Source of the DNA: an uncultured Granulosicoccaceae bacterium
GTDB taxonomy: Bacteria; Pseudomonadota; Gammaproteobacteria; CALCKW01
Direction: 5' to 3'
Length of the DNA stretch: 64,000 nucleotides
Assembly (NCBI GenBank): GCA_937965695.1
Contig: CALCKW010000006.1
Span: forward strand, 37,717 to 101,716
In this document: positions 32,358 to 41,229 of the stretch, in pieces
Position numbering within the stretch: position 1 is the first letter of the stretch
Layout: each line of letters starts with the position of its first letter
The notes under the pieces: generated by a model
Told to the model about the DNA's origin: nothing
Seen by the model: only the letters and a program-made list of their open reading frames with translations
Database searches by the model: none
Position numbers and translations under genes: made by a program

Positions 32358-33677
32358 CTAAATATCTTCGCCGACCCCAGCAAAACGCTGTCGCAACGAC
32401 CAGGCGGCACCGAGGTCTAAAAGAGGCCGCGGCGGCAGCCATTTAGCTTCAGCAAAGCCAGAGGCATCTTTAATGAGTTGGTCATCGCCTCCTAACATCA
32501 GTCTGGCCAGTGCTGTTCCAAGTGCAGTGCCGCGACTTAAGCCCGACCCATTATAGCCTGCCGCTGCAAAAACATTTGGCGCGTATTGACCAAAAAAGCT
32601 GGTCATATTGCGGCTAACGCCTTCGCAACCACTCCAACTATGTTCTATCGGTACTGACTCCAATTGCGGAAATCGTTTTAGCATACGTTCTCGGTGTTTT
32701 GGCACTTGTTGCTGCAACTGTTTTGGCGTTAGCAATTGACCGCCATTGTAAGACACACAGTTGCGTAACATTAACCGTCTATCTTTACTCAGACGAACAG
32801 TTGCTCCACCGCCGTGTAAGCCCAACACTCCCCAGCTTGGGCACGTCCCCATACTTGCCATTTCTTCGTCAGTGAGTGGTCGTGTAAAACTGCCCGACAA
32901 CGTTGTCGCAACGATTCGATTGCGCAAAAAGCCAAGCCCAGGCATCTCGTAATTACAAGCCAAGACTAATTGCTGTGTTTGCACCGTGTGGCCAGTAGAC
33001 AGCATGAGATCTATTCCTAGAGCACCTTGCTGAATCTGCTCAACGGGCGTGTTCTCAAAAAACCGGACGTTTTCCGGTAATCGATCCACCAAACGGTAAA
33101 GCAGGTCTGCAGGCTGTACGAGCGCCCCAAGTGGCACGTGCACACCACAATCGTAATGAGATGTGCCCAGCTCTCGCTCTATGTCACTTCTATTAAGTGC
33201 CCTGTACGGCAACCGAAAATTGCGCAGGCTGTTTATAAAGTGCTCGGATTCACGCGCTGATGGTGTGTCCGCCGCGAGATAATGATAACCACTTTCCTGC
33301 CACCAATCGCTATTGGATTCCGGTGAAGCTGCCGCACGCAACAGCGCAAGGCCTTCGTGATTTAGACGATTAATTCGTTTGCATTCGGCAACACGCTCTT
33401 CTGTGACAGGCCCACCAAATTGTGAAACACCAACTGCAAAGCCAGCGTTTCGTCCAGACGCACCCGCAGACAAGGTTCTGGCATCGAGCAACAGCACTTC
33501 ATCATCTGGACACATCGCGGCCAATTCGCGCGCTGCAGACAAACCTGTAAAACCAGCGCCAACCACAACAAATTTCACCGATTTATTCTCTCGCAATGCA
33601 GGTCGCGAACGTCGAGGTTGTGTTAGGTAGCGCCAGCCCGTGAGGTCATCGGAAAAAGTTTTAGTGGTGTGAGCCAT
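32358..33677 (-). CDS. FAD-dependent oxidoreductase (DAO family; PuuB/OrdL-like)
   Basis: 439 aa. Rossmann dinucleotide motif KFVVVGAGFTGLSAARELA near the N-terminus. Confidence 0.7.
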   Translation of the reverse strand: MAHTTKTFSDDLTGWRYLTQPRRSRPALRENKSVKFVVVGAGFTGLSAARELAAMCPDDEVLLLDARTLSAGASGRNAGFAVGVSQFGGPVTEERVAECKRINRLNHEGLALLRAAASPESNSDWWQESGYHYLAADTPSARESEHFINSLRNFRLPYRALNRSDIERELGTSHYDCGVHVPLGALVQPADLLYRLVDRLPENVRFFENTPVEQIQQGALGIDLMLSTGHTVQTQQLVLACNYEMPGLGFLRNRIVATTLSGSFTRPLTDEEMASMGTCPSWGVLGLHGGGATVRLSKDRRLMLRNCVSYNGGQLLTPKQLQQQVPKHRERMLKRFPQLESVPIEHSWSGCEGVSRNMTSFFGQYAPNVFAAAGYNGSGLSRGTALGTALARLMLGGDDQLIKDASGFAEAKWLPPRPLLDLGAAWSLRQRFAGVGEDI

Positions 33678-33772
33678 AGGGCGGCAAGGCCTTTAGAAAT
33701 AATCGTTCTGCAGAGCTTAAACTGATTAGCAAACTGGCGCAGCAATCTTAAAAAAACAAATGAAGTACATCG

Positions 33773-33780
33773 GGGGGGGA
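33773..33780. repeat. Homopolymeric G8 tract (C8 on the minus strand) in the intergenic or promoter region
   Basis: tcGGGGGGGGaaatcg read directly. Lies between the stop of the zinc-ribbon gene (33808) and the start of the FAD oxidoreductase (33677). Confidence 0.6.
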
Positions 33781-33807
33781 AATCGAAAGCTCTACCAAAT
33801 GTCTCCG

Positions 33808-35004
33808 TCAATAACCGTAGGTGGCAGGCCTACTCGAGCCCTGCAGGTTGCCCTCGCTAGCAATCACTAAAAAACCACCAGCAGCGGTTAGCGATGCGAC
33901 GACGACCAATGCAATTTTTATCTTGCTGTAGGGTCTCTCGCCAAGAACTTTGGCTGTGCGGCCGTTTATAACAAATCGATAATGCTTGCCGCTGAATCTG
34001 AAAGCGGCTGTCCACAGCGGCAGCAATATATGCTTGAAGGTAGTACCGCTGTGGCGCGTATTCACACTGTGAACTCGCTGATAATCGCCACCGATATCCG
34101 CCCGTACATCCGCTTTAATCTTGGCACTCATCACTCGCCTAGCCCGATCAAAACCCTCATCGAGTGGCACTTGATAAACTTCACTGCGCAAGCCACTAAG
34201 GTAGGATTCATCGTAGGGGACCAGCGCTTGTAAATCCCATGGATGCAAGCGATCCGTGATTTGTCGAGGCAGCGTATCGGACGCGCCAATAAGCACGTCG
34301 TCAAAGTGCCGGCCAACTCTGCCGGTCACACGATGCCAACGCACCTTGGGCACTTGTTGTCGGCGCCGAACCCGCCGTCCGTTCTGCACCACTGTCACCC
34401 ATTCACTGACAAAGTAAGTTTCACCACGCTCACCACGATACTGGCTGCTCGTATCGCTGTCATAAGTCCAATAGGGCAAATACACGCCGTTGAGCGATTG
34501 ATCGGCCCGCGCATAACGCTTGAGCTTACTGGGAGCAAACCACAAACTTTTCAACCATTTGCGGTAGGCTTCGCTGGCTTGTTTTTCAGTCACAGCAAAG
34601 GGCAACAACGACTCTGCCCTAAACCTCACCGATTCACCGTCAGTCAAGACTACAGGTGCACTGCAAAAGGGGCATTCTCCCGAGCGTTGTTCCGCGTCGT
34701 AACTGAAATGGGCACCGCAGCTATCACAGCCAATATGCGGTACCTCATTGGTCTGATCAGGCGCGCGCTCTAAAGCAGCCAATGCCTCTCGCAAACTGTG
34801 TTCGCTAATGGTTTGCGTTGATTTTTCAATGGCCTGCTGGTGGTTGCAATAGTCGCAGACCAGCGACTCTTGCCCCACGGCATAACGCAACACAGCACCG
34901 CACTGCTCGCACGGAAAACGTTGCTCTTGCCGTTCATTAATTACGTTTTTTTTGTTCGCCAGATTTTTCTTGGCCGTATCAAAAATACCCAAGGCTTTAG
35001 CCAC
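33808..35004 (-). CDS. Multi-zinc-ribbon membrane-anchored protein (B. subtilis YdjG-like), last gene of the TelA/SPFH stress operon
   Basis: 398 aa. Two N-terminal CxxC…CxxC ribbons (CEQCGAVLRY…CDYCNHQ and CDSCGAHFSY…CPFCSAP). Single C-terminal TM helix (IALVVVASLTAAGGFLVIA). Confidence 0.5.
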   Translation of the reverse strand: MAKALGIFDTAKKNLANKKNVINERQEQRFPCEQCGAVLRYAVGQESLVCDYCNHQQAIEKSTQTISEHSLREALAALERAPDQTNEVPHIGCDSCGAHFSYDAEQRSGECPFCSAPVVLTDGESVRFRAESLLPFAVTEKQASEAYRKWLKSLWFAPSKLKRYARADQSLNGVYLPYWTYDSDTSSQYRGERGETYFVSEWVTVVQNGRRVRRRQQVPKVRWHRVTGRVGRHFDDVLIGASDTLPRQITDRLHPWDLQALVPYDESYLSGLRSEVYQVPLDEGFDRARRVMSAKIKADVRADIGGDYQRVHSVNTRHSGTTFKHILLPLWTAAFRFSGKHYRFVINGRTAKVLGERPYSKIKIALVVVASLTAAGGFLVIASEGNLQGSSRPATYGY

Positions 35005-35069
35005 CCGACAAGTTTGCAGTGTTCAATTTCAGTCCAGAGTGCTTACCTTCAAATGATGAAACACCCCGA

Positions 35070-36170
35070 TCAAGCAGACGGTATCGGTGGTGGCTGTTGG
35101 TCATCAAACAAATCGGCTACCACAGGGGCCTCGTCCGCTCGCATCCATTCGCCCAGAGACTTGTACCACACAAGTGTGTCGGCGGAGAGTTCACCCGCCT
35201 CAACTTGTTGGGTGATTTGAGGCAAAGTAAACGGCCCCGTCGCTGTCCCGTCACGAGCAACATGTACACGCACTACTGGCAACAAGGGCGGAGGAACATC
35301 ACCCTGGCCAAGCACACCAGGGCGCATCATTTGAGTCGCAGCGGCCATACCAACCGCCATGCCCATACCATCACTTGCACCGCCGCTCGGGTTTTCCGCA
35401 GCGGACTGCATAGCGGAGCCAGTTTGCACTTTGATGTACCTATCAAGGTCACCAATAATTCCCATGCTGGTGCGTTTATCCAGTGCCGCTTCTACATCAG
35501 AAGGTAACGAGATATTCTCAACCAAAAGCTTGGTGATTTCGAGCCCGTACTCAGAAAACTCAGGCGCTATTTGAGCGGTGATGAAATCACTGAGCTTTTC
35601 GTAGTTAGCAGCCAAGTCGAGCACGGGAATCTGCGCCTCCGCAACAACGGCGGCAAAACGTGCTGCGATCAGATTACGCAGCTGCTCGCTGATTTCATCA
35701 ACAGAAAACAAACCGTCAGTGCCGACAATTTCACGCAAAAACCGTTCGCCATTATTGATACGCATCACGTAACTGCCAAAGGCGCGCAAGCGCACCATGG
35801 CAAACTCCGAATCACGAATCATCAGAGGATTTCGCGTACCCCATTTTAAATCAGTAAAACGCCTTGTGCTGCAAAAATAAACCTCTGCTTTGAACGGGCT
35901 GTTAAACGCGTGAGGCCACGCTTGTAGAGACGACAACAGAGGTAAATTATTTGTTTCCAGTTCGTACATTCCAGGCTCTAGCACATCGGCTACCTGCCCT
36001 TCGTTGACAAATACAGCCACTTGCCCTTCGCGTACAGTCAGTTTTGCACCGTATTTTATCGAGTTTCCCTGGCGCGGAAATCTATACACTAGCGTGTCGG
36101 AGCTATCATCGGTCCATTCAATGACGTCGACAAATTCGCCAAAGAGCCGATCAAAAAGTCCCATGATCAA
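35070..36170 (-). CDS. SPFH-domain protein with C-terminal GYF-like DUF4339 domain (YdjI/virion-core-protein-like band-7 family)
   Basis: 366 aa. The N-terminal 250 aa match the YdjI-type SPFH fold (…KLTVREGQVAVFVNEGQ…). C-terminus is LPQITQQVEAGELSADTLVWYKSLGEWMRADEAP, the DUF4339 pattern. 4-bp overlap with the upstream TelA-like gene. Confidence 0.65.
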   Translation of the reverse strand: MIMGLFDRLFGEFVDVIEWTDDSSDTLVYRFPRQGNSIKYGAKLTVREGQVAVFVNEGQVADVLEPGMYELETNNLPLLSSLQAWPHAFNSPFKAEVYFCSTRRFTDLKWGTRNPLMIRDSEFAMVRLRAFGSYVMRINNGERFLREIVGTDGLFSVDEISEQLRNLIAARFAAVVAEAQIPVLDLAANYEKLSDFITAQIAPEFSEYGLEITKLLVENISLPSDVEAALDKRTSMGIIGDLDRYIKVQTGSAMQSAAENPSGGASDGMGMAVGMAAATQMMRPGVLGQGDVPPPLLPVVRVHVARDGTATGPFTLPQITQQVEAGELSADTLVWYKSLGEWMRADEAPVVADLFDDQQPPPIPSA

Positions 36171-37342
36171 GCGCTCGTTGAGGGCGCTGCGGCCGCTTCA
36201 GTGCCGTGCGCGCTAGCCGCTTTCAAGGACTCACGCAATTCTCCTTCTAAACGATGCAACTCTGTCTCTGCTTCGGCGCGGCGTCGTTTACCCTCGTCAG
36301 CGATGACAAGACTCTCTTCGATACTGGCCACTAAATTTGCGTGCGCTTTTTTAACAGATTCCATGTCAAATACACCGCGTTCCATCTCTTCACGCACCTG
36401 ACGGTTAGCCGTGCGCAGGTTCTCAGAATTTTTTTCCAACAACTCATTGGTTAAATCGGTCGCGGCTTTAACATCGGTGGCCACTTTCTGAGAGCGATAA
36501 ATACTAACCGCCTGTGCCAACTGGTTACGCCACAAGGGCACCGTATTGACAAGCGTTGTATTAATTTTTGTGATGAGGCCTTTGTCGTTCTCTTGAACCA
36601 TCCGAATACTGGGCAATGCCTGCATCGCAACTTGGCGCGTCAAACGTAAATCATGCACTCGTCGCTCCAGGTCATCACGACGTGCGCGCATATCGCGTAA
36701 GGCCTGAGCTTTGAGCATGTCTTCACCTTCGGCCTCCGCAACAAGCGCAGGAATCAGTGTCTTATCACACTCTTCAAGCTTGGATTCACCCGCGGCGATG
36801 TATAACTCGAGATTATTGAAGTAATCCAGATTGGCGTCATAGAGTTTATCTAAGGAGACGATATCGCGTAGCAGCGTTGTCTTGTGGGACTCAAGCTTAT
36901 CAGTCACTGCGTCAATCTGTGGGCGCACTTCCTCGTATTGTTGAATAAACTGTGCAACAGGCGCAGCCCTTCCCGTAATCCAATTGATAAGACGCGCCAA
37001 AAGACCTGGTTTTTCATTTGGATCAAGGCCTGCCACGTCAAAACCACGAAGTACGCCAACCATTTCGTTGAGGGAATCTCCCGCTGTGCCTAGTTCTTTG
37101 TTTTTTACACCTTCGAGCATACTGTCGGATATTGTTGTCAGCTGCTCTTGAGCTTTGCTGCCAAAAAACAAAATATCATTGCTGTCGTTCATGTTGAGCT
37201 GCGTCTGAAGCTCTTCAATTTTAACCCGCTGTTCTTCGCTGGCAGTCGCTAAGGTGACGGGTTCATCGGCCAATACCATCAAGGTGTGACCGACAATTGA
37301 CTGTTCACTTTGCAGTGTAGTTTCGCTCATTGTTTTCTCCAT
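36167..37342 (-). CDS. TelA-like toxic-anion-resistance protein (TelA/KlaA/YaaN family)
   Basis: 391 aa. Helical protein of TelA length, with conserved family-like segments (…GFDVAGLDPNEKPGLLARL…LYIAAGESKLEE…). Confidence 0.7.
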   Translation of the reverse strand: MEKTMSETTLQSEQSIVGHTLMVLADEPVTLATASEEQRVKIEELQTQLNMNDSNDILFFGSKAQEQLTTISDSMLEGVKNKELGTAGDSLNEMVGVLRGFDVAGLDPNEKPGLLARLINWITGRAAPVAQFIQQYEEVRPQIDAVTDKLESHKTTLLRDIVSLDKLYDANLDYFNNLELYIAAGESKLEECDKTLIPALVAEAEGEDMLKAQALRDMRARRDDLERRVHDLRLTRQVAMQALPSIRMVQENDKGLITKINTTLVNTVPLWRNQLAQAVSIYRSQKVATDVKAATDLTNELLEKNSENLRTANRQVREEMERGVFDMESVKKAHANLVASIEESLVIADEGKRRRAEAETELHRLEGELRESLKAASAHGTEAAAAPSTSA

Positions 37343-37392
37343 TGACTTTTGTCACAGAGCGCATCTCTGTGACTTGGGCATGTCGCTTGATT

Positions 37393-38238
37393 TTAAGCCA
37401 CGCCTTCTCTTTCAAGCTGCATTTGCAGCACTTCAATTTTCACGTCCAGGTCGTCGTGGTTATGTTCCATCAATTTAATCCGCTGCTCTTCAACAACAGT
37501 CTCAATGGTATCGAGCACACGGCGGAAGTTATCTTCGAGCGCCGCGTCATCACCGAGACGGTGCGTGCGAGCGTATCCAGCGACCACTTGCTGGGCACCG
37601 TCTAAATACACCTTTAAAAACTTTCGCGCACGCCGTAAATCAGAAGGCTGATCTTCGATGATATCGAGCAATTCGCGCACGGCAGCGACAATGCGACGCA
37701 ATCGCTGACGTAGTTCGGGTTGTTTAATCTGACGAGCGGATGTTTCAATCGCATCAATACGAGACTCAGCCTCTTCAAGCACATCCAACACTTCTTCTGC
37801 CGTCACACCTACTGCAGATATATCAGGAGAATTTCGTGCCGGATCAAAGCCGTAGCGTAAGTAGTACCCCAAAAAAGTGAAGCCACCATAAATGACCGAG
37901 GTAATGAGCCCATTGCGAGTACCCGCCCAGGCGGCGAGTGTCACGCCAGCACCCAAAACTAGCGCGGCCATTGCCTTGTAAGGCACTGTACTACTGCGTC
38001 TGACTAGTTTGCGACGCAGTGCTTGAGATTCGATCAGCATGCCACGCCGAGAAAGATTGGCGGCTAAAATACAGATGGCGAACGCCACGCCTAACAGAAG
38101 CGCCAACATCCAATGACCGCCGGATAATCGCAATAAAGCAGCCAGCAACAGAGGTAGAGGTAAAAAGTAAAGCAAAAGACCACGGCTATTGGGGTGACCA
38201 CCACGCGCTTTACCGCCATAACGCTTGGCGAGGCTCAT
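37393..38238 (-). CDS. XpaC-like (5-bromo-4-chloroindolyl phosphate hydrolysis protein family) membrane protein
   Basis: 281 aa. N-terminal hydrophobic TM helices followed by a C-terminal charged helical domain. Positioned directly upstream of the TelA-like gene, as xpaC/yaaN are in Bacillus. Confidence 0.5.
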   Translation of the reverse strand: MSLAKRYGGKARGGHPNSRGLLLYFLPLPLLLAALLRLSGGHWMLALLLGVAFAICILAANLSRRGMLIESQALRRKLVRRSSTVPYKAMAALVLGAGVTLAAWAGTRNGLITSVIYGGFTFLGYYLRYGFDPARNSPDISAVGVTAEEVLDVLEEAESRIDAIETSARQIKQPELRQRLRRIVAAVRELLDIIEDQPSDLRRARKFLKVYLDGAQQVVAGYARTHRLGDDAALEDNFRRVLDTIETVVEEQRIKLMEHNHDDLDVKIEVLQMQLEREGVA

Positions 38239-38434
38239 CCGATTGCCCCTGGCAGGGTTAACAGTGCTTGACAGGAAACACTACCGACTGTGAATAGCAG
38301 TAAAATTAACCCGATGAACGATTTAAGAGTCTTGGGCATTGCATTCTTTCCAGATCAAACTTTAATGAAGATAAGGGTGAATAAATCACATTCCAAGTAT
38401 CACATACATTACTGCTGAGACGGGATTGCAAAAA

Positions 38435-39238
38435 CTATCGCTTGGGTAGCAGCCGTTCCAAAACGTATAAACCGCACGCTGGCAGCACGATCGCAGGCCC
38501 TGGAGGCCAATCTAACAGAACGGCCAAGACGATCCCTATCAAACACAGCAGCATGGAAATACAAACCGATCGGCCCACCATGCCAGCAAGCGAGTTCGAT
38601 CGTGCCTCAACCAAAAGCGGAGGGATGGTCATCAGGGCTATCACCAATAACAAGCCGACAACCCGCACCGCCAAAACCACCGTCAAGGCTATTAACACAT
38701 AGAGCACGGGGTAGAAAACATCGGTGGCAACTCCGCGCGCGCGCGCGTATTCCTCCTCGAATGCTACCGCTACCAACAAGGGGTAGAACCCATAAAATAA
38801 CACGCTGACCAAAAGGGCCAAAGCGGCTAGCCAGAGCAAATCATTGGGCTGAATGAGCAACATCGAGCCAAAGAGCCAGACACCTAAATCACCTTGATAT
38901 CCGGGGCTGTACTGCATCAGAACTACACCGAGTGACATACCACCCGCCCATATAACACCTACAACGGCCTCAGTTCGATGCCGTGATCGCCTAGTGGCCC
39001 AACCCATAAGAAGCGCCATCGCAATACTGTAAGCAGCAGTTGTCGGTAGAACAGGTAATGCAAAATAACGCGCTAACCCGACTCCGCCATAGGCAGCATG
39101 GGCGATGCCTCCGGCCACGAAACTTATGCGCTTTACAACCACTAGCGTGCCAATTAATCCGCACAGATAACCCACCAACAAGGCTGCCACAAGCGCCTGT
39201 TGCATGAAGGGTTCAAAGATTAAATCAGTGATCCACAT
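38435..39238 (-). CDS. znuB: Zinc/manganese ABC transporter permease
   Basis: 267 aa, 8-TM ABC-3 family permease. Overlaps the upstream ATPase gene. Confidence 0.8.
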   Translation of the reverse strand: MWITDLIFEPFMQQALVAALLVGYLCGLIGTLVVVKRISFVAGGIAHAAYGGVGLARYFALPVLPTTAAYSIAMALLMGWATRRSRHRTEAVVGVIWAGGMSLGVVLMQYSPGYQGDLGVWLFGSMLLIQPNDLLWLAALALLVSVLFYGFYPLLVAVAFEEEYARARGVATDVFYPVLYVLIALTVVLAVRVVGLLLVIALMTIPPLLVEARSNSLAGMVGRSVCISMLLCLIGIVLAVLLDWPPGPAIVLPACGLYVLERLLPKR

Positions 39239-40010
39239 GGTGCTGATGCTCGATCACTAGATTCGACAAATCACTCAAGTAACAACCCATCGGGCAGGCG
39301 TCGGTATGAACACCATAGATCAAAGCAAGCATCTCTCGGCTTAACTGCGAATCCGCGTTGTAGATGAGACGACTATTGACGCATGCCACACTGTCGACCA
39401 TTGGTGCCGTGACACTGAAGTCGTGGCTGACCATCACCATGGTCATGCGCTTGTGCAAGCGCTCAAGCAACTCATGAAAACAATAGGTACCATCAGGGTC
39501 AATATTGGCGGTTGGCTCGTCGAAAAGTAATATCTCGGGTTCACCAATCAACGCGCGTGCAATGTAAACCCGCTGTCGCTGTCCACCAGACAGTGCTTGG
39601 AAAGATCGCTCAGCTAAATCAGCGATGCCTACTTCTTCCAATACACCAAGAATTCGATCAGCTTGACGCTCACGCACAGAGAATCCGCGGCTTCGTGCGA
39701 CGGGCAAGCCCATGGCCACCACTTCACTCACTCGAATAGGAAAACCAGGCTGATTGAGAATCTGTTGAGGCACGTAGCCTACTCGGGTTCGCGCTTTGCT
39801 GGGCTTTTTACCCAACATACGTACGTCACCCGCGTCTGCATCGATCAGACCGAGCATAACCTTTAGCAATGTCGACTTGCCACCGCCGTTAGGGCCGATC
39901 ACAGCCGTGAATTCGCCCGGTGCCAAGCTCAGACTCACCTTGTCGAGCAGAGCACGTCCATCTCGCATCACACTGACATTGTTTAACTCTATAGCAGGGG
40001 ATTGGATCAT
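39225..40010 (-). CDS. znuC: Zinc ABC transporter ATP-binding protein
   Basis: Walker A (GPNGGGKSTLLK), signature LSGGQRQRV, and Walker B (ILLFDEPT). Confidence 0.8.
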   Translation of the reverse strand: MIQSPAIELNNVSVMRDGRALLDKVSLSLAPGEFTAVIGPNGGGKSTLLKVMLGLIDADAGDVRMLGKKPSKARTRVGYVPQQILNQPGFPIRVSEVVAMGLPVARSRGFSVRERQADRILGVLEEVGIADLAERSFQALSGGQRQRVYIARALIGEPEILLFDEPTANIDPDGTYCFHELLERLHKRMTMVMVSHDFSVTAPMVDSVACVNSRLIYNADSQLSREMLALIYGVHTDACPMGCYLSDLSNLVIEHQHHVDH

Positions 40011-40912
40011 GGTGCTGATAATCCATCTGCCAGTGAAAGCAAGGTAACTTCCCAGTCGTAGCTCAGTGGATTGATCACCAACAATTTAAGCCCTAAATGC
40101 GAGGCCACTGTTTGTGCCTGAGCGCCACCGTGTTGACTGACTACGAAACGAGCACCATTTTTACTTGCGGTTTTCTTCAAGTCGCTCATCTGTCGAATTG
40201 AAGGCAACTTACCTTCGTGTTCAACTGACAGTTGTATCAGTTTAAATTCCTGACAAAACCAACCCCAAGATGGATGGTCAGCCACAATCGTCGACGCGCT
40301 ATCTTTCAGTTTCACGGCAAGTGATTGCTGCAGCGTTTCGACACGTTCCTTGAAGGCATCCATCCGCTCAGAATAATAAGCACGTCCCGAAGGATCCAGT
40401 TGTTGCAACGCTTGGCTCGCCAAAGAGCCCATACGCAGCATCTCTCTAGGTGATGTCCAACGATGCGGGTCTTTACCATCTATCTGTGAGTGATTGTGAT
40501 GTTCGTCGGCTTGAGTGTCGTTTGGTTTTTGCGCTTCTGAAGAACGATCACCTTCTTGTCTTTGATCATCATCACTTTCGTCCAGCCATATCAACTTGTC
40601 GCTGCTGCCCAAGCGCTCACCTAAACCACGTTCAAAGGGTAACCCGACGCCAAAGTAAACATCTGCACCTTTTAGAGCCAAAAGCTGTTTTGGTGTGGGA
40701 TCAAGAGCATGAGGATCGCCATTACTAAGTAGGGTACTCACAATCACGCGTTCACCACCTATCTGGTCGAGTAAATAACGCATCGGATCGATACCTACAG
40801 ATACCTGCAACTGCGCCTGCACAGGCGATGCTAAAACAACAGAGAGGAAAAAAAAGTATCGAAGGAACAACATCGGATAGGTGCTTGATTGAAAACGCCA
40901 ACGGTAACACAA
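40007..40912 (-). CDS. znuA: Zinc ABC transporter periplasmic substrate-binding protein with His/Asp/Glu-rich loop
   Basis: Cluster-9 SBP fold with an acidic His-rich insertion (DESDDDQRQEGDRSSEAQKPNDTQADEHHNHSQIDGKDPH) typical of ZnuA. The start is uncertain; 40873 is an alternative. Confidence 0.75.
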   Translation of the reverse strand: MCYRWRFQSSTYPMLFLRYFFFLSVVLASPVQAQLQVSVGIDPMRYLLDQIGGERVIVSTLLSNGDPHALDPTPKQLLALKGADVYFGVGLPFERGLGERLGSSDKLIWLDESDDDQRQEGDRSSEAQKPNDTQADEHHNHSQIDGKDPHRWTSPREMLRMGSLASQALQQLDPSGRAYYSERMDAFKERVETLQQSLAVKLKDSASTIVADHPSWGWFCQEFKLIQLSVEHEGKLPSIRQMSDLKKTASKNGARFVVSQHGGAQAQTVASHLGLKLLVINPLSYDWEVTLLSLADGLSAP

Positions 40913-41034
40913 TAAGCCGTTATTCTGAGGCTAAAAAGCTTCGTGCTGTACCAAAACCCCTGTGATCTGCAGCACCGGCAGATGCTCTGGCATACTAAAA
41001 CCTTCAAACACCGTCGAATGTGGATTTATGGCAC

Positions 41035-41229
41035 ATGATAGATAGCAAACTTTTAGTGATATTGGCCTGCCCCGTTTCGAATGGAACACTAGTAGAAGTG
41101 GGCGAAGAGCTATGGTGCGCTAGGAGTGGTCTTGCCTTCCCGGTTGAAGATCAAATTCCAGTCCTACTTGAAGAACGAGCTCGCACTTTGTCGCTAGATG
41201 AAGTTGATTCGATTAAATCTAAATCTTAA
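41035..41229 (+). CDS. Trm112-like small protein (UPF0434/YcaR family)
   Basis: LLVILACPVSNGTLVE…AFPVEDQIPVLLEERAR matches the Trm112/YcaR zinc-ribbon-like family. Start trimmed to MIDSKLL. Confidence 0.6.
   Translation: MIDSKLLVILACPVSNGTLVEVGEELWCARSGLAFPVEDQIPVLLEERARTLSLDEVDSIKSKS

Follow-up and report, generated by a model that had tools for sequence, protein, structure and literature searches.

A conserved proteobacterial operon joins XpaC and TelA with an SPFH-GYF protein and a YdjG-like zinc-ribbon anchor

We analysed a 64-kb stretch of DNA (the window) from contig CALCKW010000006.1 of an uncultured Granulosicoccaceae bacterium. Our subject is a minus-strand operon of five genes. In order, they encode a small membrane peptide, XpaC, TelA, an SPFH protein with a GYF domain and a YdjG-like zinc-ribbon anchor (Table 1). 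A first-pass annotation, made from the letters of the window, had described the last four as a membrane-stress operon of a gammaproteobacterium. These four open reading frames (ORFs) are indeed tightly packed on the minus strand, with spacers of 50 bp between the XpaC and TelA genes and 65 bp between the SPFH and zinc-ribbon genes. The host was also correctly placed, and its nearest relatives are metagenome-assembled genomes of Granulosicoccaceae (Gammaproteobacteria). Hydropathy places transmembrane (TM) segments in only three of the five products, XpaC, the small peptide and the zinc-ribbon protein. Neither TelA nor the SPFH protein has any.

Table 1. Coordinates of the operon genes and associated features in the window.
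Feature	Position	Strand	Details
Small ORF, likely first operon gene	38235-38339	minus	34 aa; overlaps XpaC start
XpaC-like membrane protein	37393-38238	minus	281 aa; Pfam PF10112
Hairpin in XpaC-TelA spacer	37351-37373	minus	9 bp stem, 5-nt loop
TelA (toxic anion resistance family)	36167-37342	minus	391 aa; Pfam PF05816
Soluble SPFH protein with C-terminal GYF_2	35070-36170	minus	366 aa; Band_7_1 + GYF_2; YdjI/SamI homologue
PPPxP/GYF tail of the SPFH protein	35070-35300	minus	SPFH residues ~290-366
YdjG/SamG homologue, zinc ribbons and TM anchor	33808-35004	minus	398 aa; homology to B. subtilis YdjG

The TelA and SPFH genes had been reported to overlap by 4 bp. This is true only with a TTG start at 36170. 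The junction reads TGA-TC-ATG (window 36162-36170), and the ATG at 36164 lies two bases past the TelA stop. This ATG (MGLFD...) is more likely the start of the SPFH gene, and it agrees with the gene calls in SPFH orthologues. The tight coupling of the two genes holds whichever start applies.

The XpaC-TelA spacer (70 nt) carries a hairpin with a minimum free energy of -21.1. Compared with mononucleotide shuffles of this spacer, z is -4.6. No run of T follows it. The hairpin is confined to the window, and z values below -2 were found in just 6 of the 65 regions tested, the window included. It could tune the XpaC:TelA ratio in this lineage. Rfam gave zero matches in positions 33500-38700, and a promoter and terminator scan of the window gave promoter scores that were not above those of shuffled sequences.

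The first-pass annotation was right in treating the four genes as a unit. Nevertheless, it missed the 34-aa ORF that makes the operon one of five genes. We found this ORF by k-mer counting upstream of XpaC, where a recurrent ATGCC(C/T)AA proved to be its start. The product is MPKTLKSFIGLILLLFTVGSVSCQALLTLPGAIG. Its stop overlaps the start of XpaC (ATGA). The peptide shows a basic N-terminus, a single hydrophobic helix (hydrophobic segment 4-27) and a lipobox-like VSC. Of 66 loci, about 57 have an equivalent ORF of 27-52 aa directly before XpaC, and one of these ORFs was also predicted by a gene caller (locus L001). Their products share the basic N-terminus and the hydrophobic helix, usually with a lipobox-like L-[AS]-[ST]-C. 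Among 11 copies of equal length, differences at codon positions 1, 2 and 3 number 397, 44 and 757. An upstream control was flat, so the pattern is a clear coding signature. No Pfam family matches the peptide, which is predicted to be membrane or lipoprotein-like. It is likely that this ORF is the first gene of the operon.

The domain assignments of the larger proteins had been left to profile searches, and XpaC, TelA, SPFH and GYF/DUF4339 all passed the Pfam cutoffs. All four larger proteins lack a model in NCBIfam. The XpaC-like protein matches Halogen_Hydrol/XpaC (PF10112) with 97 bits (cutoff 29.8; 1.6e-27), at profile positions 5-191 of 191. Several hydrophobic segments lie within residues 18-127 by hydropathy. 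The C-terminal part is the helical Halogen_Hydrol domain, predicted to be cytoplasmic. The protein therefore combines the profile match with the layout of the XpaC family, TM segments followed by a helical domain. A sequence search of the PDB with XpaC returned chance coiled-coil matches only.

The TelA protein matches PF05816 with 361 bits (cutoff 30; 6.7e-108) over profile positions 1-331 of 332, and it is 56% identical to the Pseudorhodobacter copy. It is all-helical and soluble, with a long helical hairpin (128-204 / 209-321). The AlphaFold2 model, with a predicted local distance difference test (pLDDT) of 72, shows this long hairpin and further helices. We found no solved relative of TelA in a sequence search of the PDB. 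TelA was considered as a PspA homologue and rejected (no similarity to PspA; rank 58). Likewise, it did not show the sequence or fold similarity to PspA, Vipp1 or ESCRT-III that defines the ESCRT-III/PspA superfamily.

Genetic data on the two proteins are available from Firmicutes. In Enterococcus faecium, deletion of xpaC alters daptomycin binding and phospholipid domains only with an intact telA, which implies that XpaC restrains TelA (PMC6811118). In Listeria, telA mutants show a mild tellurite sensitivity (PMC12791056). A Listeria telA mutant was also sensitised to nisin, as cited in that paper (PMC12791056).

The SPFH protein matches Band_7_1 with 323 bits (residues 28-238). Its C-terminus matches GYF_2 (DUF4339) with 45 bits (cutoff 25.8; residues 303-349), and this GYF_2 domain weakly matches PDB 7z3c. 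More precisely, Band_7_1 is followed by a linker rich in Gly, Ala and Met, then by PPPLLP, GYF_2 and a C-terminal PPPIP. The first-pass annotation had noted a likeness to ydjG and ydjI, and it proved to be true homology. For the SPFH protein, BLASTP gives 27% identity to Bacillus subtilis YdjI over 258 aa (E 2e-35). With its Band_7_1 domain, its lack of TM segments and this homology, it is a protein of the YdjI/SamI type. However, the C-terminal zinc ribbon of that type is missing, and GYF_2 with its PPPxP flanks stands there. Firmicute copies from Bacillus and Enterococcus do carry C-terminal zinc ribbons.

Motifs of the PPPxP type on both sides of GYF, just before the domain and at the extreme C-terminus, are present in 67 of 73 orthologues. 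They also occur in the SPFH proteins of Paracoccus, Vibrio and Tsukamurella. Such motifs are missing from all the orthologous zinc-ribbon, TelA and XpaC proteins. GltJ, the only bacterial GYF domain studied to date, binds a proline-rich sequence and forms a switch together with a zinc ribbon (PMC11135422). A zinc ribbon is found next to the GYF domain in 44% of bacterial GYF proteins (PMC11135422). The GYF domain and the proline motifs that flank it probably mediate self-association or autoinhibition of the SPFH oligomer, or contact with the zinc ribbons of the partner. These partner ribbons may modulate the self-association or autoinhibition.

The 398-aa zinc-ribbon protein had been described as having two zinc ribbons and a C-terminal TM anchor, and both were found. 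The ribbons are of the form CxxC...CxxC (C32/35/50/53 and C93/96/111/114) and are predicted to be cytoplasmic. All eight cysteines are invariant among 47 homologues. A conserved alpha+beta domain of ~230 aa is also present. The anchor is a single hydrophobic helix (361-385) with a short outside tail. No Pfam family is above cutoff for this protein. However, it is a full-length homologue of B. subtilis YdjG, with 26% identity over 363 residues (E 5e-38), and a profile comparison of its family with YdjG gives 99.9% (E 2.6e-33). The protein has the features of YdjG/SamG: two N-terminal ribbons, a YpeB/PepSY-like domain, a C-terminal TM segment and homology to YdjG. As reference for the pspA-ydjGHI locus of B. 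subtilis (L090), we used a metagenome contig found with a published ydjG primer taken as a degenerate pattern.

This family is very large, with 6883 representative clusters at E <=1e-3 and 897 at <=1e-30. The YdjG-like protein of Enterococcus matches its profile with E 1.2e-31. In public records, some YdjG-like members are misnamed 'primosomal protein N' (replication factor Y)' or 'RNA polymerase subunit RPC12' (P0033, P0050, P0499, P0504), likely because of their zinc ribbons. Matches to the zinc-ribbon protein in phage collections were distant, of the Firmicute type and from unannotated records, and we judged them uninformative.

In a scan of genomes, relatives of the zinc-ribbon protein turned up in at least 582 species, and the best 80 loci were kept. 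Gene order was counted where the upstream sequence reached 3.7 kb or more, which left 70 loci. The first-pass annotation had set a lack of co-conservation as the result that would speak against its proposal. The outcome was the opposite. In 66 of these 70 loci, XpaC, TelA, SPFH and zinc-ribbon genes are together in a fixed order on one strand, with xpaC directly upstream of telA as in the window. They span Granulosicoccaceae, Methylococcales, Thiotrichales (Thiothrix, Leucothrix), Sedimenticola and Chromatiales. Of the four exceptions, Methylotuvimicrobium buryatense 5G (L050) has only the SPFH and zinc-ribbon genes, two loci have just the zinc-ribbon gene, and the last one lacks XpaC. Clustering of all ORFs in these loci gave no other broadly conserved neighbour, and the flanks vary between genomes. 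So, the four genes form a unit, and their linkage is not left over from synteny.

The combination recurs in Rhodobacterales, with a DUF2927 gene between TelA and SPFH (L084 4723-5751; L097 3848-4795). In Thioclava the order is XpaC-TelA-DUF2927-SPFH/GYF-zinc ribbon. In Paracoccus, and from the spacing of matches probably in Pseudorhodobacter, it is TelA-DUF2927-SPFH/GYF-zinc ribbon. Other lineages have different sets of genes. Phycisphaerales, Aminicenantes, Fermentibacteria, Vibrio coralliilyticus and Tsukamurella present only the SPFH-GYF and zinc-ribbon pair. Comamonas has the zinc-ribbon gene with an SPFH protein whose tail is HTH_17 in place of GYF, and a Bacteroidetes contig has the zinc-ribbon gene alone. 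Enterococcus shows SPFH (with a zinc-ribbon tail), YdjG-like and TPM genes in a row. Finally, Bacillus combines PspA, YdjG, TPM (YdjH) and SPFH (YdjI).

The SPFH-GYF and zinc-ribbon pair is an ancient, broadly distributed two-gene core, and its partners differ by lineage. In Firmicutes the core is combined with PspA and TPM. In two classes of Proteobacteria it goes with TelA, and in most cases with XpaC as well. XpaC-TelA is a lineage-restricted (proteobacterial) addition to this core.

Some loci show further genes. One or two extra ORFs (136-369 aa) lie between the SPFH and zinc-ribbon genes in some loci of the Methylococcales type (L035, L049, L052, L061). In 22 of 81 loci (e.g., L001 3697-4365), a gene shortly before the operon and with its orientation encodes a methyltransferase of the thiopurine/tellurite type (TPMT family, PF05724). 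On a Vibrio coralliilyticus plasmid (L085 600-5000), the SPFH-GYF and zinc-ribbon pair lies beside divergent genes with TIR and TRAFs-binding domains, which may be coincidence. In the window, the genes around the operon are housekeeping (znuACB, Trm112, LysR, FAD oxidoreductase). Directly upstream are a metal ATP-binding cassette transporter of the znuA/znuC/znuB type (38435-40912, minus) and a Trm112-like gene (41020-41229, plus). The same arrangement is present in a close relative (L002) and missing from more distant carriers.

These data establish a real and widely conserved operon in which two gene pairs, each of a known membrane-stress kind, are combined. Regarding its function, we favour with moderate confidence the reading that the locus is one conserved operon whose products likely form a complex at the inner membrane, on its cytoplasmic side, that monitors and protects membrane integrity. 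Homology to B. subtilis proteins that have been tested identifies the zinc-ribbon protein as a membrane receptor of the SamG/YdjG orthologue type, and the SPFH protein as a scaffold of the SamI/YdjI type. In B. subtilis, YdjG and YdjH are required for the membrane foci of YdjI and PspA (PMC8581546). Loss of SamI unbalances and deregulates SamG-SamH signalling (bioRxiv 10.64898/2026.02.06.704340). By analogy, the zinc-ribbon anchor would recruit the SPFH-GYF scaffold. The scaffold, whose gene is translationally coupled to telA, would organise TelA as a client in place of PspA. XpaC, perhaps with the small peptide, might anchor, restrain or gate TelA at the membrane. TelA and XpaC could then substitute for the PspA and YdjH (TPM) of Firmicutes on a SamG/SamI-type scaffold.

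A more specific version seems unlikely. TelA could be a membrane-acting effector, a soluble ClyA-like bundle of long helices that engages or remodels the inner membrane. In that case, XpaC and the small peptide would act as its restraint, and its deployment would fall to an SPFH cage of the SamG/SamI type. The operon might then provide a PspA-independent membrane repair of the phage-shock type, with the GYF/PPPxP tail as the switch of cage assembly.

Several points weigh against the proposed membrane-integrity complex. The role of TelA as a client of the SPFH scaffold is deduced from gene order only. Across 66 loci, no stress-type motif (sigma-54, RpoE, RpoH, sigma-W-like) is conserved upstream of XpaC. 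PspA may be encoded elsewhere in the genome, because just 64 kb of it have been seen; within these 64 kb, a tblastn search with E. coli PspA and B. subtilis YdjH (E up to 1) found no PspA, as the first-pass annotation had claimed, and no YdjH/TPM homologue. Finally, the XpaC-TelA and SPFH/zinc-ribbon pairs each occur independently in other organisms.

Such independence would be expected of two separate two-gene modules (XpaC-TelA and SPFH-YdjG-like) that lie side by side on a shared transcript and do not form one machine. The SPFH and zinc-ribbon genes are on their own in many phyla and in M. buryatense, and the TelA gene of Vibrio campbellii has none of the other three genes nearby. Likewise, Firmicutes have xpaC-telA as a pair on its own (PMC6811118, PMC12791056). 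Nevertheless, we consider this separation quite unlikely. The four-gene order is fixed through several gammaproteobacterial orders while the flanks change, and the combination recurs in Alphaproteobacteria. Moreover, the tightest junction of the operon, TelA/SPFH, falls exactly between the two modules. A literal determinant of tellurite or toxic-oxyanion resistance, which handles or excludes oxyanions, is very unlikely, although TelA family membership and the upstream TPMT gene of some loci would agree with it. In bacteria, TPMT is associated with the methylation of tellurite and selenium. The mild tellurite sensitivity of Listeria telA mutants (PMC12791056) also goes in this direction. However, domain searches of the five proteins turned up neither an enzyme nor a transporter or redox domain. 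The partners of TelA are scaffold and anchor proteins, its phenotypes in Firmicutes are mainly toward membrane- and cell-wall-active agents, and TPMT is missing from the window and from most loci.

The first-pass annotation also saw a resemblance to anti-phage membrane systems. This could take the form of abortive infection, with TelA as a latent ClyA-like pore former checked by XpaC and the SPFH cage. ClyA, AhlC and MakE recur in the Foldseek list for TelA, and the SPFH/zinc-ribbon pair of the Vibrio plasmid lies beside TIR-domain genes. In addition, the kilA operon of RK2, which is lethal to the host, includes telA (klaB). The genetics that suggest a restraint of TelA by XpaC (PMC6811118) would fit as well. 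On the other hand, the TelA model has a pLDDT of only 72, and no hydrophobic head or tongue is apparent at the tip of the helical hairpin. PADLOC-DB 2.0 has no match for the four proteins at E up to 0.01. The flanks are housekeeping and syntenic, and the GC content and composition of the locus are ordinary. The anti-phage resemblance is therefore unsupported, and we regard a defence system of this kind as highly improbable.

All the domain families, the xpaC-telA pair and the ydjG-ydjI pair are already described. We found no paper on an operon of XpaC/TelA with SPFH/Band_7, on the small ORF or on the PPPxP flanks; the survey of TelA neighbourhoods by Anantharaman et al. 2012 is not covered by this statement. 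Thousands of genomes carry annotated TelA and XpaC genes, whose products affect the tolerance of daptomycin, nisin and tellurite by a mechanism that is not known. The SamG/SamI (YdjG/YdjI) pair has been studied in B. subtilis only, and only with PspA. The operon physically links TelA/XpaC with a SamG/SamI-type pair in many marine and methanotrophic Proteobacteria. A small membrane protein so far left without annotation and a conserved GYF/PPPxP feature are further additions. The operon also illustrates how the SPFH-GYF/zinc-ribbon core picks up different effectors in different lineages. The hypothesis that TelA is a client of the SPFH scaffold, with XpaC and the small peptide as its membrane partners, can be tested. 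The operon opens an experimental approach to the function of TelA and XpaC.

Several known systems resemble parts of the operon. The ZnR-linker-GYF switch of Myxococcus GltJ also combines a bacterial GYF_2 domain with zinc ribbons and proline-rich ligands (PMC11135422). In the window, by contrast, the GYF domain and the zinc ribbons are on two separate proteins, the proline motifs flank the GYF itself, and the operon has no link to gliding motility. The IncP kilA/tellurite operon, klaA-klaB(telA)-klaC(telB), pairs a TelA-family protein with a membrane protein, and klaB/TelA of hundreds of conjugative plasmids is among the TelA matches. However, identity is only 26-29%, the operon is plasmid-borne, and it has no SPFH, zinc-ribbon or XpaC genes.

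The xpaC-telA (yaaN) pair of Firmicutes (E. faecium, L. monocytogenes lmo1966-1967, B. subtilis) is closer. It consists of the same two Pfam families, adjacent and with XpaC before TelA, and it is tied to the tolerance of membrane-active agents (PMC6811118, PMC12791056). The pair of the window differs in being part of a longer operon, with the SPFH/zinc-ribbon pair and with a small membrane peptide in first place. In addition, its XpaC has extra N-terminal hydrophobic segments (18-65) before the region that matches Pfam (93-271).

We found no published study on the Rhodobacterales form of the operon. It differs from the window in the extra DUF2927 gene and, in Paracoccus, in the lack of a recognisable XpaC. 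Nevertheless, it has the same families in the same order. Thioclava even presents a small hydrophobic ORF, without Cys, that overlaps the XpaC start.

Finally, the pspA-ydjGHI (pspA-samGHI) operon of B. subtilis contains homologues of the last two genes of the window, YdjI/SamI and YdjG/SamG. Gene order is not that of the window, and TelA, XpaC and the small peptide stand in the window where B. subtilis has PspA and the TPM-domain YdjH. The SPFH tail is also different, a zinc ribbon in Bacillus and a GYF domain with PPPxP flanks in the window. Nevertheless, YdjI/SamI is a soluble Band_7_1 SPFH protein like that of the window, and YdjG/SamG has the two zinc ribbons, the YpeB/PepSY-like domain and the C-terminal TM segment (PMC11237479) seen in the window protein. 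The SPFH and zinc-ribbon genes are adjacent in both. The logic that the two systems are expected to share is that a membrane receptor recruits an SPFH scaffold.

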